Positions 448 to 13,664 of a DNA stretch of 38,123 nt are shown in pieces. The number at the start of each line of letters is the position of its first letter. Position 1 is the first letter of the stretch. The stretch lies in the IMG/VR virus record IMGVR_UViG_3300043036_000143; one strand, 5' to 3'. A program made the position numbers and the translations under genes. Source of the stretch: a virus. The notes under the pieces are model-generated. The model was given only the letters and a program-made list of their open reading frames with translations, did not search any database and was not told where the DNA came from.

Positions 448-560
448 CAGTACACCAAGGAATGGATGATAATGCACTGATGACATCCGTTACTTGCTTG
501 CGATTGCTTCGCGCGTGTGTTGATGATATTCTTTCAAGTGGGTGAATAGGTTTCTGAGAC

Positions 561-598
561 TCTCTCTCTTGCTCTCTCTCTCTTGCTCTCTCTCTTGC
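561..598. repeat. Tandem (TC)n-TTGC polypyrimidine repeat, 3 units
   Basis: TCTCTCTCTTGC, TCTCTCTCTCTTGC and TCTCTCTCTTGC sit inside a roughly 100-nt C/T-rich tract (556..650). Confidence 0.9.
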
Positions 599-669
599 TT
601 GATTGCCTCGACCATTGCCTCTCTCGCCTTGCTTTGCTCTCTTGTGGGTTACTTTGGAGGTAAAATACT

Positions 670-687
670 CTAACAAAATGCACGCTG
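670..687 (+). promoter_or_regulatory. Conserved 18-nt box CTAACAAAATGCACGCTG (copy 1)
   Basis: It matches 8470..8487 (CTAACAAAATACACGCTG) at 17 of 18 positions. Both copies lie in the noncoding leaders of the two rightward early operons and are followed by A-rich sequence. Confidence 0.4.
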
Positions 688-806
688 TAACCCTTGAAGA
701 ATAAGGGAAAATAAAAATAAATGAAATATTTATTAAAATGTTGTGGACAATGCCGCAAGATTTGTTAATTTCTTCCCGCCGCGCCGAACACAGCGGCACA
801 CACAAC

Positions 807-995
807 ATGAACATGACAGCAACCACACATAGCGAGACGCTCACTAACATGCTTAATTTTGCACGCTCCCACGACTGGGGGAAAAATGCACTCATACCCT
901 ACGCATCCTCCGCGCTGCACATCTACGACGAGTATGCAGACGAGATCGTAAAATTTACAGACATGCTCGCCCTTAGGACTTGGGCTGGTTATTAA
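807..995 (+). CDS. Hypothetical early protein
   Basis: ORF track 738..995. The ATG at 807 directly follows the CA-rich leader cacacacaac. The start is ambiguous (738 or 807). Confidence 0.45.
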   Translation: MNMTATTHSETLTNMLNFARSHDWGKNALIPYASSALHIYDEYADEIVKFTDMLALRTWAGY

Positions 996-1043
996 TCATC
1001 ACAACACAACACAACACACCATAACTTGAATATACTCTTGAAC

Positions 1044-1787
1044 ATGAAAACTACCACTGTAAAAACACAAGCAAGAAATGAAAAGCGCGATCTACTCACA
1101 AGTGAGAATGCAAAGACAAGCAAGGGAGAAAACCTAGGCTTTCTCACTGGCATTCTCTACCTTGCGCCCGCCAATGAGAGCGGAAAAAACACCTGCCCTT
1201 TTGCGTCGACTGGTTGCGCTGCCGCTTGTCTATTTACGGCTGGGCGCGGGGCATTCGATAGCGTGCGGGAAGCGAGACTAGCTAAGACGTATTACCTATG
1301 GCAAGGCGTGAGTCACTTTGTGGACAATCTCGAGTTTAATATCCATGCCCTAGAACGGAAAGCTAAGCGTGAGGGATTAACTCCATGCGTGAGACTAAAT
1401 GGTACAAGTGACTTACCATGGGAAACAATGAAAGGAAACAAGAAAAAATCGATCATCGCGCTTTTCCCTCACGTGCAGTTTTATGATTATACTAAAAATC
1501 CATCACGCATGAAAAAATACCTACGCGGAGAGATGCCCGCCAATTACCACCTTACATTTTCACGTTCGGAATGTAATCATGAAACATGTCTTGAGATTCT
1601 CGAGATGGGCGGGAATGTTGCCGCCGTATTTGAAAAGATGCCGGAAATATGGTGTGGAAAAGAAGTAATTTCCGGGGATGATCACGATTTAAGATTTTTA
1701 GACAAAACTGGAGTAGTGGTAGGATTAAAAGCTAAGGGAAAAGCTAAAAAAGATCTCTCCGGTTTCGTGGTATCAGCCAATGATTAA
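1044..1787 (+). CDS. GP88-family-like protein with N-terminal Cys cluster (function unknown)
   Basis: The track ORF 1026..1787 starts at TTG. The first ATG (1044) follows the (ACAAC)n leader at 998-1025. Motifs TSKGENLGFLTGILYLAP, CPFASTGCAAAC, NGTSDLPWE and GDDHDLRFLD were recalled from memory as Pfam GP88-like. Confidence 0.7.
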   Translation: MKTTTVKTQARNEKRDLLTSENAKTSKGENLGFLTGILYLAPANESGKNTCPFASTGCAAACLFTAGRGAFDSVREARLAKTYYLWQGVSHFVDNLEFNIHALERKAKREGLTPCVRLNGTSDLPWETMKGNKKKSIIALFPHVQFYDYTKNPSRMKKYLRGEMPANYHLTFSRSECNHETCLEILEMGGNVAAVFEKMPEIWCGKEVISGDDHDLRFLDKTGVVVGLKAKGKAKKDLSGFVVSAND

Positions 1788-1800
1788 ATTATAAAAATTA

Positions 1801-1850
1801 GCCACTGAAGAGCCTCCAGGCATGAGGCGAAACGCCGCAAGGCGTATGGC
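1801..1850 (+). ncRNA. Type I hammerhead ribozyme HHR-1 (predicted cleavage between 1846 and 1847)
   Basis: Sequence parses as GCCA / CUGAAGA / GCCUC-CAGGCAU-GAGGC / GAA / ACGCC-GCAA-GGCGU / A / UGGC. The full invariant core is present, with 5-bp stem II, 5-bp stem III capped by a GNRA loop, and an open stem I. Confidence 0.9.
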
Positions 1851-1867
1851 AATGCCAATAGAACAAT

Positions 1868-2077
1868 ATGAACACAATCACTACTCAAAAAGCAATTCGC
1901 GCCCAATTTTGGGCATCTCACCCAGATCTTGAAGCTCACGCGCTTATGTGGAGCATCAAGACAGCTCCGCAAAATAGACACAACACAGACACGCGCACGG
2001 CGTTTTGTGACTATGTCGATTCCCTTGCCAAGTCTGGCATGATCTCCGAAAAACTAGCGTCACGCGCTACCTTGTAA
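1868..2077 (+). CDS. Hypothetical protein
   Basis: 69-aa ORF. Its ATG lies 21 nt downstream of the HHR-1 cleavage site. Confidence 0.65.
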   Translation: MNTITTQKAIRAQFWASHPDLEAHALMWSIKTAPQNRHNTDTRTAFCDYVDSLAKSGMISEKLASRATL

Positions 2078-2104
2078 AACAATACAACACAACACACAGA
2101 CAAA

Positions 2105-2356
2105 ATGAAAACTACTATTACAAAATCAGCAGCCATCAAACACGCTCGCCAAAACGTATCCTCACTGTCAATCTTTGGGGGGCAATACAGATTCGCAACC
2201 TACGACGCGAAAATGAACGCATGGTGGGAGCATGTCCCGAAACAATTCCATGCTGCCGCTTTCGACCGCTCGCAGGCACTTATTGATGCCGCCCGTGACT
2301 ATCTCGATTTGCCATGCGTGCAATATGACGGCGGCGCATGGATCGACTATGTTTAA
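2105..2356 (+). CDS. Hypothetical protein
   Basis: 83-aa ORF. The ATG is preceded by the CA-repeat leader acaacacaacacacagacaaa. Confidence 0.7.
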   Translation: MKTTITKSAAIKHARQNVSSLSIFGGQYRFATYDAKMNAWWEHVPKQFHAAAFDRSQALIDAARDYLDLPCVQYDGGAWIDYV

Positions 2357-2393
2357 ACCACACTACCACAGAAACCGTACACAGCATAAAACT

Positions 2394-2588
2394 ATGATCA
2401 CAGGAAACATGCAAATTTCAAACACAGAAAGCTTTCTTCATTCATGCAAACTTGCCATCTCGCATGAATTTAAAACGCGCCATTACAAGGCAATCGGGCT
2501 TTACACTCCAACAGAAAACGTGCGCGATGCAATCGCCATCATTCGCAGAATTCAGCCTAAAAACATCACCAAGCAATCCAAACCATGA
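2394..2588 (+). CDS. Hypothetical protein
   Basis: This is the distal part of track ORF 2232..2588. The ATG at 2394 is the first start downstream of the preceding gene, and the stop overlaps the next ATG (ATGA). Confidence 0.5.
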   Translation: MITGNMQISNTESFLHSCKLAISHEFKTRHYKAIGLYTPTENVRDAIAIIRRIQPKNITKQSKP

Positions 2589-2731
2589 ATACACCAACTT
2601 GCTCACTCGTCCGCCGTCCCATCCGCCGCAATCCATGGCGGAAATGGATCACCACCACCGCTGAAATCATCGGGGGAGTCCTCACGATTGCTCTACTTGT
2701 AACACTCACCCTCCTGTCCTTAGCACTATGA
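2585..2731 (+). CDS. Small membrane protein (48 aa)
   Basis: Hand translation gives MNTPTCSLVRRPIRRNPWRKWITTTAEIIGGVLTIALLVTLTLLSLAL, a basic N-terminus plus one hydrophobic helix. It has ATGA overlaps at both ends and is below the track length cutoff. Confidence 0.5.
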   Translation: MNTPTCSLVRRPIRRNPWRKWITTTAEIIGGVLTIALLVTLTLLSLAL

Positions 2732-2901
2732 CCACATTCACAGCACTATCCCAGCGCATCCGCGCCGCCGTATCCACTGCCGATCTCAAAGCTTTAGAAA
2801 AGCGATGTGATAGGCACTATGAGGCAGGCACTATCACACCGAGCGAGTTTTCCCGCTTAGATGGAATGATCATGGAACGCATCGCATTACTGAACCAATA
2901 A
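2728..2901 (+). CDS. Hypothetical protein (57 aa)
   Basis: Hand translation gives MTTFTALSQRIRAAVSTADLKALEKRCDRHYEAGTITPSEFSRLDGMIMERIALLNQ. It is ATGA-coupled to the upstream ORF. Confidence 0.5.
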   Translation: MTTFTALSQRIRAAVSTADLKALEKRCDRHYEAGTITPSEFSRLDGMIMERIALLNQ

Positions 2902-2926
2902 AACACAACACAACACAAATAAGGCT

Positions 2927-3244
2927 ATGATAACAATAACACAGAAAGATTACACAATCCTGCAGAAAATCGCCGAAAAAATTAATTCTGAAATCAAAGC
3001 TTACAATGAGGCTCATGATGTCGTCCACCAAGTCATTTCCGTCAGCGTAAGCCAGGACGATGATTTCATCGATCATTATGCGTATTTTGACATCGAAACA
3101 TTCAAAACCCACAGCTCGGATGAAGAATCATACGTCCATGATGCCATACGAGGCATTGCCAGACAACTTACCGATGCACTTATCACTGACACGATCGTAA
3201 GCTCTGGAGATGGGATCTTCACGGCGGTCTATAAGCTCATATAA
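2927..3244 (+). CDS. Hypothetical protein
   Basis: 105-aa ORF following the CA-repeat leader aaacacaacacaacacaaataagg. Confidence 0.7.
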   Translation: MITITQKDYTILQKIAEKINSEIKAYNEAHDVVHQVISVSVSQDDDFIDHYAYFDIETFKTHSSDEESYVHDAIRGIARQLTDALITDTIVSSGDGIFTAVYKLI

Positions 3245-3262: not shown

Positions 3263-3445
3263 ATGAATGAAATCATAATTGACGAGCTTTATATCGCTCT
3301 CAGCGTATTAGAGCAACGAGAAATTGACCTCGCCATGCTAGGCAGGGTAGAGCATAGAAACGCCGTGAGACTGGCAATGCTGCCGATCAAACGAGAAATC
3401 AACAAGCTTGAGAATAGAGAAATTTACCCTGAAACAAGCCACTGA
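3263..3445 (+). CDS. Hypothetical protein; stop codon lies inside the HHR-2 core
   Basis: 60-aa ORF ending ...ETSH-TGA. The TGA at 3443-3445 is U4-G5-A6 of the ribozyme. Confidence 0.6.
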   Translation: MNEIIIDELYIALSVLEQREIDLAMLGRVEHRNAVRLAMLPIKREINKLENREIYPETSH

Positions 3446-3485
3446 TGAGCCTCCAGGCATGAGGCGAAACCCTGCGGGGTCTGGC
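3438..3485 (+). ncRNA. Type I hammerhead ribozyme HHR-2 (predicted cleavage between 3481 and 3482)
   Basis: Sequence parses as GCCA / CUGAUGA / GCCUC-CAGGCAU-GAGGC / GAA / ACCC-UGCG-GGGU / C / UGGC. It has the canonical GUC cleavage triplet and a UNCG-type loop on stem III. Confidence 0.92.
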
Positions 3486-3519
3486 AAGAGCCAAATAACA
3501 CAACACAACACAAGACAAG

Positions 3520-3795
3520 ATGCAAACGATAACAGGCAATACATACCCCGTAAAAGAAGCCATAAAGGCACTAGGCGGAAAATGGAACAAACTAGCCAAG
3601 GGCTGGGATGTTCCCGACGAGGTAGCAGATGAAGCGCGCGCCTTAGTCTCAGGCTCGCCAAGCCGTAGCATTAGCCACAGCTATGATAAAACCACATTTT
3701 ACCGCATGAACAGCGGAGCGGTGATTTACCGCAACAGATCTGGTATGTGTGAAGATGCGCCATGCTGCGGCTGCTGCGGCACAGATAGCCACTGA
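3520..3795 (+). CDS. DUF5710-like N-terminal domain protein with Cys-rich C-terminus; stop codon lies inside the HHR-3 core
   Basis: GNTYPVKEAIKALGGKWNKLAKGWDVP resembles, from memory, the N-terminal module seen on phage replication proteins. The C-terminus is CEDAPCCGCCGTDSH. The TGA at 3793-3795 is U4-G5-A6 of HHR-3. Confidence 0.7.
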   Translation: MQTITGNTYPVKEAIKALGGKWNKLAKGWDVPDEVADEARALVSGSPSRSISHSYDKTTFYRMNSGAVIYRNRSGMCEDAPCCGCCGTDSH

Positions 3796-3838
3796 TGAGA
3801 TCCAGGCAAAGATCGAAACGCCCTGCGGGGTGTATGGC
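3788..3838 (+). ncRNA. Type I hammerhead ribozyme HHR-3 (predicted cleavage between 3834 and 3835)
   Basis: Sequence parses as GCCA / CUGAUGA / GAUC-CAGGCAAA-GAUC / GAA / ACGCCC-UGCG-GGGUGU / A / UGGC. The core is intact, and stems II and III differ from HHR-1 and HHR-2 by compensatory changes. Confidence 0.9.
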
Positions 3839-3857
3839 ACAAGCCAACTCAAAATAT

Positions 3858-4100
3858 ATGATACTATACCAGAAAACAGAAGACCCCCTTGTAATTGTAA
3901 CAGATTCCAAAACGAAAGACGTTGAGACTAAAAAACTCACTGGCACTTATTTTCGGATCATTCCCCCCGCAAATGATCGCGTGAATTGGGTGTTAACTTG
4001 CTCAGAAATGCACGTTGACCGATGGGCAAGCGCAACAGATTCCACCATGATCATTTCCGAGAATCTAAGAAAACAACTTGTCTCTTTATTCTCATGCTGA
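3858..4100 (+). CDS. Hypothetical protein
   Basis: The upstream part of track ORF 3795..4100 runs through HHR-3, and the ATG at 3834 spans the cleavage site. The first ATG after cleavage is 3858 (MILYQKTEDPL...). Confidence 0.6.
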   Translation: MILYQKTEDPLVIVTDSKTKDVETKKLTGTYFRIIPPANDRVNWVLTCSEMHVDRWASATDSTMIISENLRKQLVSLFSC

Positions 4101-5884: not shown

Positions 5885-6112
5885 ATGAAGAAAAAATATG
5901 ATGCAGTCGCCACCGTGGGCAAATACACGAAGGACGGAATAGAGAAAAAGCGTTATTTGACCGTAGGAGCGGTCTTTGAGAGCGATGAGGGCAAACTTAC
6001 CCTAAAGCTGGAAGGAGTGCCTGTATCGCCCGATTGGAGCGGTTGGATCGCATTCTACGAGCCAAAGCTAGGTTACACTGGAACAACTGAGAACGACACA
6101 CCGCCATTCTGA
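5885..6112 (+). CDS. Small (75 aa) OB-like protein ending in an SSB-type tip (...ENDTPPF)
   Basis: ATG at 5885 within track ORF 5753..6112. The beta-rich sequence MKKKYDAVATVGKYTKDGIEKKRYLTVGAVFESDEGKLTLKLEGVP ends in an acidic/aromatic C-terminus, DTPPF. Confidence 0.6.
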   Translation: MKKKYDAVATVGKYTKDGIEKKRYLTVGAVFESDEGKLTLKLEGVPVSPDWSGWIAFYEPKLGYTGTTENDTPPF

Positions 6113-7336: not shown

Positions 7337-7370
7337 AACCCCGCTAGCACCCACTGGCGGGGTTTTTATT
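7337..7370 (+). terminator. Rho-independent terminator between convergent genes
   Basis: CCCCGC (7339-44) pairs with GCGGGG (7357-62), followed by TTTTTATTCTTTT. The site lies between the stops of 7006..7308 (+) and 7375..7581 (-). Confidence 0.8.
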
Positions 7371-7892: not shown

Positions 7893-8170
7893 ATCGTTCT
7901 TTCTTTCTTCTTTATTCTGTTCTTTTTATTTCTGTACACAATTAGTCTCATAACCTCCCTAGAGCACACACGATGAGAAACAATATCTACCATGCGCTTT
8001 TATGATCGGAATCAGCCCCTTAGGAGTCAACCTCCTGCCACCTCTGCTTAGTCTCATGGTGACAACACGCTGGCAGCTTTCCCGCTTCCCGTGCCTAGTG
8101 ATGAGTGTGGAAGATTCACGTCTTCTCGCGGTGTCCTTTGTTTTGGTCTGTCTTCAGAATCGAACAGGGG

Positions 8171-8210
8171 CAAATGAAAAGCCCGTTCAGGCTACTACCT
8201 CTGAACGGGC
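8171..8210 (-). terminator. Rho-independent terminator on the minus strand inside the long noncoding region
   Basis: A perfect 10-bp stem GCCCGTTCAG (8181-90) / CTGAACGGGC (8201-10) with a 10-nt loop. On the minus strand it is followed by TTTTCATTTG. Confidence 0.65.
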
Positions 8211-8436
8211 TTCGATGCTATTTGAACACACAGCAAGAAAGTCTTTTACGGCGGTAGTAGCGCACGAACGGGTGAAGAATACCGCAATGAGCGGAAAACG
8301 CAAGGATTATTTTTCAGGGGGTGAAAATATCCCCCAAGGTGCGCATCGTTGAGAGGCGTGAGGGATCTGCTGCCAGAATAGTATCAGAGAATCGGGTAAA
8401 TTCAAGCTTAGATATGGAGCAGGATCGGTATCATCG

Positions 8437-8464
8437 GACGTATGGCAGACGTATGGCAGACGTA
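8437..8464. repeat. 11-bp tandem repeat GACGTATGGCA, 2.6 copies
   Basis: Copies at 8437-8447 and 8448-8458, with a partial copy at 8459-8464. The repeat lies immediately upstream of the 18-nt box. Confidence 0.85.
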
Positions 8465-13083: not shown

Positions 13084-13664
13084 ACACACTAAGAGGATTT
13101 CCCAAACGATACGAGGATGCCCCGCCAGCGACAGGTGACGGATGGTTGGCAAACTATGCCAAAGCACTCGCCACAACCGATTCTGGGGGCATTACGATCC
13201 TTTACGGAGGATATGGCACAGGCAAGACACGCATGGCTTGGGAGGTGGCTAGGGCGCATAAGTCCAAGCGTCCAACAATCAGTAATGGTGGCATTGGATG
13301 GACGACAAGCACGAAGAAACGCCCGATGGTTTACACCACAGCGGTGAACTTGTTCTCAACGATCAAATCCACTTATACTTCTGGATCTGGCAAATCAGAA
13401 AAGGAAGTTGTATCGGATTACTGCGAAGCTGCACTGCTGGTGATAGATGAAGTCCAGGAGCGTGGGGAAACACAATACGAGGATAGACAGCTAACCGCTA
13501 TCATTGATGCGAGATACGCCGCAGATATGCCGACGATCCTGATTTCCAACTATACATGGGAGAGATTAGCATCTACGCTATCTCCAGCTGTGATTGATCG
13601 GATCGAGGAGAACGGGGCGAAACTACTATTCAACTGGGAATCATTTAGAACCAAAACAAAATGA
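13080..13664 (+). CDS. DnaC/IstB-like AAA+ ATPase (helicase loader)
   Basis: Walker A GGYGTGKT and Walker B LLVIDEV are present, with sensor-like PTILISNY. The size and context fit a phage replication module. Confidence 0.8.
   Translation: MNTLRGFPKRYEDAPPATGDGWLANYAKALATTDSGGITILYGGYGTGKTRMAWEVARAHKSKRPTISNGGIGWTTSTKKRPMVYTTAVNLFSTIKSTYTSGSGKSEKEVVSDYCEAALLVIDEVQERGETQYEDRQLTAIIDARYAADMPTILISNYTWERLASTLSPAVIDRIEENGAKLLFNWESFRTKTK

Follow-up and report, generated by a model that had tools for sequence, protein, structure and literature searches.

Does the short intergenic segment between two small plus-strand genes of an uncultivated tailed phage encode a self-cleaving RNA, and what would such an RNA do to the message that contains it? 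The segment lies in IMG/VR virus record IMGVR_UViG_3300043036_000143, a stretch of 38,123 nt that was analyzed as a whole and is called the window here; all numbering follows it. It holds a candidate hammerhead ribozyme, HHR-3, with a core at 3788–3838 that extends to 3847 when the 3′ tail is included, and two sister copies, HHR-1 and HHR-2, precede it on the same strand. The best overall explanation, with a probability of about 0.85, is a type I hammerhead in the early operon of the phage that cuts a polycistronic mRNA. We are nearly certain that 3788–3847 is a genuine, conserved hammerhead, and we have high confidence in the prediction that it is an active self-cleaver.

HHR-3 contains every invariant nucleotide of the hammerhead core (C3 U4 G5 A6 N7 G8 A9, G12 A13 A14, the pair A15.1-U16.1, and an H17 that is not G). 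On the plus strand it is read as GCCA (stem I 5′ strand, 3788–3791), CUGAUGA (core C3 to A9, 3792–3798), GAUC (stem II 5′ strand, 3799–3802), CAGGCAAA (loop II, 3803–3810), GAUC (stem II 3′ strand, 3811–3814), GAA (core G12 to A14, 3815–3817), ACGCCC (stem III 5′ strand, 3818–3823), UGCG (stem III loop, 3824–3827), GGGUGU (stem III 3′ strand, 3828–3833), A (H17, 3834) and UGGC (stem I 3′ strand, 3835–3838). Stems I and II are of 4 bp each; stem II has a C.A mismatch in addition, and its G10.1-C11.1 pair adjoins the core. Stem III has 6 bp with one G.U wobble, and A15.1-U16.1 (A3818-U3833) adjoins the core on that side. By the hammerhead rule the predicted scissile bond lies between 3834 and 3835, behind a GUA triplet, and UGGC forms the 5′ end of the predicted 3′ product. 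A 3′ tail follows at 3839–3847, made of the spacer ACAA and GCCA(A), with GCCA ending at 3846. Both the parse and the minimum-free-energy fold of 3788–3838 have the type I topology, with stem I open and stems II and III closed by loops. The minimum-free-energy structure of these 51 nt alone is the three-way junction, at −15.5 kcal/mol; the folding-energy z-score of −1.3 is uninformative by itself. The parse and coordinates proposed earlier from the sequence alone prove exact, and the predicted cut falls at the site it named.

Fuzzy and model searches find only three hammerheads in the window, all on the plus strand, at 1801, 3438 and 3788. The core of HHR-1 occupies 1801–1850, with A at N7, stem II GCCUC/GAGGC, stem III ACGCC/GGCGU and A at H17; with its tail AAUGCCAA it reaches 1858, and a 5-bp pseudoknot GGCAU/AUGCC is possible. 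The core of HHR-2 occupies 3438–3485 and its tail ends at 3494. It reads GCCA, CUGAUGA, stem II GCCUC/GAGGC around loop CAGGCAU, GAA, stem III ACCC/GGGU around UGCG, C at H17, UGGC after the cut, then AAGA and GCCAA. Both copies have the full core, as in HHR-3. Stems II and III of HHR-3 differ from theirs by pair-preserving changes, as the sequence-only reading described. That reading took this covariation within one genome as a sign of selection on the RNA fold; three copies are thin on their own, and about 70 distinct homologues show the same pattern.

The relatives were gathered from IMG/VR with three DNA patterns. The first demanded only CCACUGANGA, CAGGCA and GAAAC, with no stem pairing, stem III or UGGC, yet outside the window it gave 23 matches, of which 21 are full hammerheads that have paired stems II and III, U-H and UGGC. 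The second, with stem I left free, returned mostly chance matches and one true hammerhead, on contig L033, which has stem I CCGC/GCGG and a possible loop II-tail pairing GCAU/AUGC. A metagenome scan, whose listed matches are mostly chance, added at least about 7 family members. An alignment of all copies with MAFFT (A1) was structurally inconsistent and was rejected; gapless seeds and a model-based alignment replaced it. The resulting alignment A3 holds 93 hits, 74 of them distinct. It is fitted to the structure, and for this reason counts from an unfitted sample are given alongside: 56 distinct regular-expression matches selected with no pairing requirement, a few of them chance.

In alignment A3, 98.8% of cells are standard pairs, compared with 79.9% in shuffles and 27–40% when the partners are slid. 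Changes on both sides occur in 14 of 15 pairs, and the covariation score is 0.468 versus 0.133. Pair 10.2-11.2 of stem II is UA in 24, CG in 22, AU in 21 and GC in 6; pair 15.3-16.3 of stem III is CG in 33, GC in 14, AU in 13, UA in 8 and GU in 1. The unfitted sample agrees. Stem II position 2 is CG 18, AT 15, TA 13 and GC 5 (91% paired, 37% when shuffled), and stem III position 3 is CG 23, AT 11, GC 9, TA 8 and GT 3 (96% and 41%). Loss of pairing among homologues, which had been named beforehand as evidence against the fold, is not the pattern of this family. Within the core, G12 A13 A14 is invariant in A3 and only N7 varies among relatives (CTGA[ATCG]GA). Of the 56 regular-expression matches, 36 have C at H17, 18 have A, and U and G occur once each; in the parsed family H17 is never G. 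Close orthologues of HHR-3 have A-U in place of the stem III G.U of the window; one with a U insertion (contig L009) gains a fifth stem II pair, GAUCU/AGAUC, and further orthologues have GUCC/GGAU. At the genomic position of HHR-3, other phages have a hammerhead of quite another make (GUUCC/GGAAC, ACCC/GGGU). Stems II and III are kept by compensatory changes in about 70 distinct relatives on uncultivated phage contigs, and selection acts on the fold.

Stem I and the segment behind the cut behave differently from stems II and III. The GCC/GGC pairs of stem I are nearly invariant, and only the core-adjacent pair varies (AU 68, GC 3, CG 1, GU 1). The sequence-only reading had both the core and the loop II sequence CAGGCA as fixed; the core part stands, while in loop II the family conserves only GGC (NAGGCA, UUGGCA, CUGGCA, GGCG, GGCU), at 3805–3807 in HHR-3. 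It overlooked the frozen stem I, the GCCA tail, and the prior description of clustered phage hammerheads flanking single genes (PMC3088659). The arrangement after the cut, UGGC[A/G], 1–4 nt and GCCA, is conserved in 54 distinct sequences. In HHR-3, tail GCC 3843–3845 could pair with loop II GGC 3805–3807 as a pseudoknot or, as GCCA, with UGGC 3835–3838 as a hairpin.

Two models built from separate sequence sets recover the same sites. Model R2 was made from seven sequences of another stem type, with no window sequence and no HHR-3-type orthologue among them, and gives 51.2 bits (E 3.8e-12) for HHR-3, 58.4 for HHR-2 and 51.6 for HHR-1; no other match in the window exceeds 11.8. Model R1 was built from HHR-3-type seeds, with HHR-1 and HHR-2 outside the seed, and recovers HHR-1 (52.7 bits) and HHR-2 (53.4 bits) at E about 5e-11. 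A fourth R1 match, at 13170–13226 with 16 bits, was dismissed as chance; it falls in the Walker A motif of an ORF (open reading frame) for an IstB/DnaC-like ATPase.

The curated Rfam families RF00163, RF00008, RF02275, RF02276, RF02277 and RF03152 all stay below their gathering thresholds in the window, with best scores of 18.6–22.6 bits against 48.5–56.3. Hammerhead_1 (RF00163) is not listed at E ≤ 10 for the window, Hammerhead_3 (RF00008) fits HHR-3 in the wrong register at 18.6–22 bits, and HH9 (RF02275) gives HHR-2 19.7 bits; all three share the catalytic core of HHR-3. RAGATH-1-hammerhead (RF03152) scores HHR-1 at 21.5 bits and gives the best-registered Rfam alignment of HHR-3, at 22.6 bits versus a gathering score of 56.3, in the correct register over model positions 22–77 only. 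It agrees with HHR-3 in core and type I topology, and in both RNAs the open stem I and stem II are short. However, its 5′ hairpin and A-rich linker are absent (model positions 1–21 are unmatched, and the sequence upstream is the coding end of ORF 3520–3795), and the accessory element of HHR-3 is on the 3′ side, that of RAGATH-1 on the 5′ side. Because the thresholds are not reached and the RAGATH-1 5′ hairpin is missing, HHR-3 is assigned to the ribozyme class only and to none of these sub-families.

The three hammerheads sit in a plus-strand early operon. Genes for Erf, an exonuclease, a DnaA-HTH protein and a GP88-family protein are on this strand, Erf and the exonuclease just downstream of the hammerheads, and the minus strand encodes an SU10-type major capsid protein, the terminase and endosialidase-like tail proteins. 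No terminator-like site was found on the plus strand between 741 and 7337. A strong terminator-like hairpin of 11 bp (7 G-C) followed by TTTATTCTTT lies at 7337–7364 (+); past the hammerheads the plus strand has no other such site, and the early operon probably ends here. A sigma-70-like promoter match (TTGACA, 18 nt spacer, TAGAAT, 11/12) is present at 418–447, near a CT-rich tandem repeat of CTCTCTCTCTTGCT (2.6 copies, 560–599) that gave a spurious snoZ178 match.

The gene upstream of HHR-3 (3520–3795, plus strand) lies between HHR-2 and HHR-3 and encodes 91 aa with a Cys-rich C-terminus, ...CEDAPCCGCCGTDSH. It is a real gene, since its product matches PHROG 2656 (E 9e-11) and PHROG 5664 (E 5e-10) up to residue 86. 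The C-terminus CEDAPCCGCCG resembles hypothetical proteins of about 196 Mycobacterium phages in a tblastn search (36–43% identity in the listed matches). The ORF ends Asp-Ser-His-UGA-UGA. Core nucleotides U4-G5-A6 are its stop codon (3793–3795), the next codon in frame is again UGA (3796–3798), and the stem I strand GCCA also forms the final bases of the Ser-His codons. This confirms the Ser-His-TGA ending inside the core seen by the sequence-only reading, and the arrangement recurs: of 53 distinct family contexts, 27 have the core UGA as the stop of the longest upstream ORF, and 10 more have a TAA or TGA stop immediately 5′ of GCCA. HHR-2 likewise supplies the stop of ORF 3263–3445. HHR-1 has no stop in its core, and its upstream ORF stops at 1785–1787. 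The overlap of stop and core forces the upstream proteins to end in X-His.

The downstream gene (3858–4100, plus strand) encodes 80 aa, and its ATG is 23 nt past the cut. Two ATGs before it arise incidentally from the ribozyme sequence, the one at 3795 from CUGAUGA and the one at 3834 from A17 with the UGG behind it. Where an orthologue has C17, no ATG lies across the cut and the 80-codon ORF is retained from the equivalent ATG, and conservation starts at the downstream ATG, ATGATACTATACC. The ATG at 3834–3836 spans the predicted cut, as noted earlier, and both results support the earlier view that the gene starts at 3858. In a protein-only search with the 80-aa product, 22 IMG/VR loci were found, and a hammerhead precedes the ATG by 8–11 nt in 22 of 22. 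A Shine-Dalgarno motif is present almost nowhere upstream of the genes (ATGs 1026, 2105, 2927, 3520, 4460 and others). CA-rich repeats (ACAACACAACACAAC) precede many plus-strand genes, and the same leaders occur 3′ of hammerheads in related contigs. The rarity of the motif and these leaders hint at a host that does not use Shine-Dalgarno sequences, possibly a member of the Bacteroidota.

We propose that the 51-nt core folds while the polycistronic transcript is being made, and that a short pseudoknot, formed by loop II GGC 3805–3807 with tail GCC 3843–3845, probably keeps the 4-bp stem I alongside stem II. Self-cleavage after A3834 would leave a 2′,3′-cyclic phosphate upstream and a 5′-OH downstream, as expected from established hammerhead chemistry. 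The 5′ product would contain the upstream gene with its UGA-UGA stop in the core, and the stable stem II and stem III hairpins would form its 3′ end. The 3′ product would start with 5′-OH-UGGC, could refold with GCCA 3843–3846 as a small hairpin, and would have a leader of 23 nt before AUG 3858. Together with HHR-1 and HHR-2, such cleavage would divide the operon mRNA into pieces, uncouple their stability and translation, and release the 91-aa gene on a 353-nt fragment between the HHR-2 and HHR-3 cuts. Triple hammerheads that flank single prophage genes cleave in vitro and in vivo (PMC3088659), and because of these experimentally active clusters and the operon context, mRNA processing is the probable role, by analogy.

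Several observations weigh against this explanation. No hammerhead in the window reaches the Rfam gathering score. The three pseudoknot pairs (GGC/GCC) never vary, which gives no covariation proof and no separation from the tail hairpin, and 22 of 57 distinct sequences do not pair at the position flanking the pseudoknot. Stem I is short, at 4 bp, and when the tail is included, the minimum-free-energy fold of HHR-2 and HHR-3 swaps stem I for a UGGC-N4-GCCA hairpin. A ribosome terminating at 3793–3795 would cover and unfold stems I and II, so cleavage must precede the first ribosome or fall between ribosomes; a coupling of translation and ribozyme folding is possible. Finally, the literature has not settled what biological role hammerheads of bacteria and phages play (PMC6765202).

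The strongest competing explanation concerns the tail. In it, GCCA forms a hairpin with UGGC and makes no tertiary contact, and the hairpin acts as an off-switch before cleavage or stands at the 5′ terminus of the 3′ product, where it would render cleavage irreversible and protect the downstream mRNA. We somewhat favour the loop II-tail pseudoknot in the active fold and consider the hairpin alone a tentative but serious contender. The pseudoknot would be the kind of tertiary contact between elements of stems I and II that hammerheads require to cleave fast at physiological Mg2+. Of 54 family sequences, 53 combine loop GGC with tail GCC; of 12 other type I hammerheads that have a GCCA/UGGC stem I, 11 lack both motifs. 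The base after GGC pairs with the base before GCC in 31 of 53 sequences, compared with 26.8 in shuffles (P about 0.025, not phylogeny-corrected); loop GGCU comes with tail AGCC in 6 of 7 cases and loop GGCG with tail CGCC in 2 of 3, and 5-bp pseudoknots are possible in contigs L057 and L051. The spacer is 5–6 nt in members with a long stem II (GGC 9–11 nt from the core, n=3) and 2–4 nt in all short members (GGC 5–7 nt from the core, n=56). Neither this dependence of spacer length on stem II length nor the co-occurrence of GGC and GCC is expected from a hairpin alone. The spacer of contig L226 has 2 nt, too short for a hairpin loop, and five of seven CGGC variants keep GCCA, which would leave a C.A mismatch in the hairpin. 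On the other side, the hairpin is the predicted minimum-free-energy fold of the tail-containing RNAs and of the 3′ product, at −5 kcal/mol, and the A after GCC, which would pair with U1.1, is almost invariant (UA 66/73); the hairpin is as well conserved as the pseudoknot. Contig L042 retains the tail without the loop GGC. Two type I hammerheads with stem I GCCG/CGGC and no loop II GGC, on IMG/VR 3300045988 contigs L217 and L223, have tails GCUG and GCCG that retain a 4-bp hairpin. The two roles are not mutually exclusive; the pseudoknot may serve the active fold and the hairpin may form later in the 3′ product, and in some lineages (L217, L223) the post-cleavage hairpin may be a feature in its own right.

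A more speculative reading takes the motif and its complement, repeated four times (GCCA in the 5′ strand, GGC(A) in loop II, UGGC(A) and the GCCA tail), as a conformational device common to all copies and frozen since each segment has two partners. We consider it improbable. If true, it would be a switch between an active fold (stem I and pseudoknot) and an inactive or product fold (tail hairpin), and this switch could couple to termination of the upstream ORF at the core stop codon. Pairing across copies would then allow ligation, circularization or exon-skipping of hammerhead-delimited cassettes in a DNA phage.

It is still less likely that the cluster cleaves and also ligates. A shared stem I would let the ribozyme-bearing 3′ end of any fragment pair with any 5′-OH-UGGC, and the outcome would be a circular 353-nt segment (3482–3834) or an RNA from which the 91-aa gene is spliced out, with the 5′ product of HHR-2 ligated to the 3′ product of HHR-3. 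Stem I is indeed nearly invariant in about 70 distinct sequences in which stems II and III covary freely, and this is no general property: an unrelated phage contig, L035, has five type I hammerheads within 2.4 kb (535–2935, minus strand), and stem I is different in each. None of these has the GGC/GCC loop-tail motif, and their downstream leaders contain GGAG. Cleavage would also part loop II (5′ product) from tail GCC (3′ product), whose pairing would add 3–5 bp to a complex in trans. Perreault et al. raised the possibility themselves; however, they sought spliced or circular products in prophage clusters and found none (PMC3088659). With 4 bp, stem I would hold a trans complex only weakly, having several partners (5′ strand, loop II, 3′ strand and tail) accounts equally well for the frozen GCC/GGC, and no RNA ligase gene is present among the window ORFs scanned, which were not all of them.

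A non-catalytic element is very unlikely. It would be a structured RNA or DNA boundary that resembles a hammerhead and works as a protein-binding site or as a homology patch for cassette exchange. Its appeal lies in the mosaic setting. Across 61 distinct contexts, the stem type and the 120 nt on either side are combined near-independently (adjusted mutual information 0.19–0.24), and the gene that follows HHR-3 is seen behind 8 stem types and 10 upstream contexts, which indicates that the hammerheads mark cassette boundaries. Erf and exonuclease recombination genes are in the same operon. Contig L020 has a truncated copy at 5980–6034 (+), in the opposite orientation to this contig's other four or five hammerheads, with stem II, GAAA, stem III, A, UGGC and the tail intact and with CUGAUGA and the stem I 5′ strand missing; it is probably a relic. 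Raw pair counts suggested that stem type travels with the downstream gene, but after removal of duplicates the adjusted mutual information was 0.19 compared with 0.24 for the upstream side, and the idea was dropped. Phage gene boundaries are mosaic junctions anyway. The single-stranded core positions are invariant where catalysis needs them, the absence of G at H17 in the parsed family included, and the helices vary only in pair-preserving ways; this argues for selection on an active ribozyme fold and not on DNA homology.

A chance likeness to the hammerhead consensus in an intergenic region, to which the three matches of a loose core pattern (0.6 expected; 2 of 100 shuffles reach 3), the weak folding-energy z-scores and the sub-threshold Rfam scores might point, is refuted by the covariation in dozens of homologues, the position conserved in 22 of 22 loci and the E value of about 4e-12 from the independent model R2.

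The preferred reading, a set of cleaving hammerheads in an early operon, has close parallels in the clusters of Perreault et al. 2011 (PMC3088659), such as the triple hammerhead around ardA of Agrobacterium tumefaciens, in which several intergenic hammerheads on the coding strand bracket a small gene or a short block. The window has the same layout, with three co-oriented plus-strand copies in a phage operon, HHR-2 and HHR-3 bracketing the 91-aa gene. Stem I/stem II pseudoknots are used by about 40% of hammerheads (PMC3088659), and many hammerheads of the Perreault clusters have a Watson-Crick one; the putative pseudoknot of the window's subfamily is the GGC/GCC loop-tail one. This subfamily differs in its 4-bp stem I frozen as GCCA/UGGC, in a loop II that always has GGC and in the GCCA tail after the cut. 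The core UGA is the upstream stop in about half of its members, and PMC3088659 does not mention stop codons. Sequences of the subfamily were not found among the Perreault 2011 supplements searched (PMC3088659). On this basis the RNA of the window is a new subfamily within the known clustered phage hammerheads and not a new kind of element. It stands out by a frozen stem I of 4 bp, by the loop-tail pair GGC/GCC and by its habit of ending the upstream gene at the core UGA.

A similar layout is known from synthetic biology. The RiboJ insulators that Lou et al. reportedly described in 2012 have a ribozyme-plus-hairpin design, which the putative tail hairpin of HHR-3 would resemble. In these insulators a hammerhead stands just ahead of a cistron, the new 5′ end has a small hairpin, and cleavage leaves the downstream ORF a short, defined leader independent of the upstream context; HHR-3 would share this layout. 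The ribozyme-dependent translation of RNA viruses, a case of eukaryotic cap-independent translation (bioRxiv 10.1101/2024.05.16.594327), is comparable in these respects; in both cases the analogy is one of layout only.

Among isolated phages, a nucleotide comparison of the window with INPHARED gave no match. By terminase, the closest isolate is Phage C75C1 (42% amino-acid identity), in which there is no hammerhead. Two matches of a 22-base pattern on metagenome-assembled genome contigs (L185 409–440 and L186 2077–2108) seemed to indicate a Chitinophagaceae host and were rejected as chance; they lie inside a conserved coding region, have no stem III and no UGGC and are not matched by R1, and they are a caution against assigning hosts from pattern matches. 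Elsewhere in the window, an abiF RNA (RF03085) at 8329–8365 on the minus strand scores 41.8 bits against a threshold of 37 over its full length and is the only above-threshold Rfam match in the window; it overlaps the end of the plus-strand ORF 8002–8352. An 11-nt tandem repeat of GACGTATGGCA (2.5 copies) follows at 8437–8464.

Phage hammerheads as such would not surprise a specialist. This subfamily has about 70 distinct sequences, with 3–5 copies per phage operon, and lies below current Rfam thresholds; routine annotation would leave such sites blank or call spurious starts, as at the ATGs 3795 and 3834. The frozen stem I and the tail with two possible partners provide simple, testable structural hypotheses. 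A ribosome that terminates on the ribozyme itself makes these operons a natural system for the interplay of translation and ribozyme folding, and for testing what phage hammerheads are for (PMC6765202).

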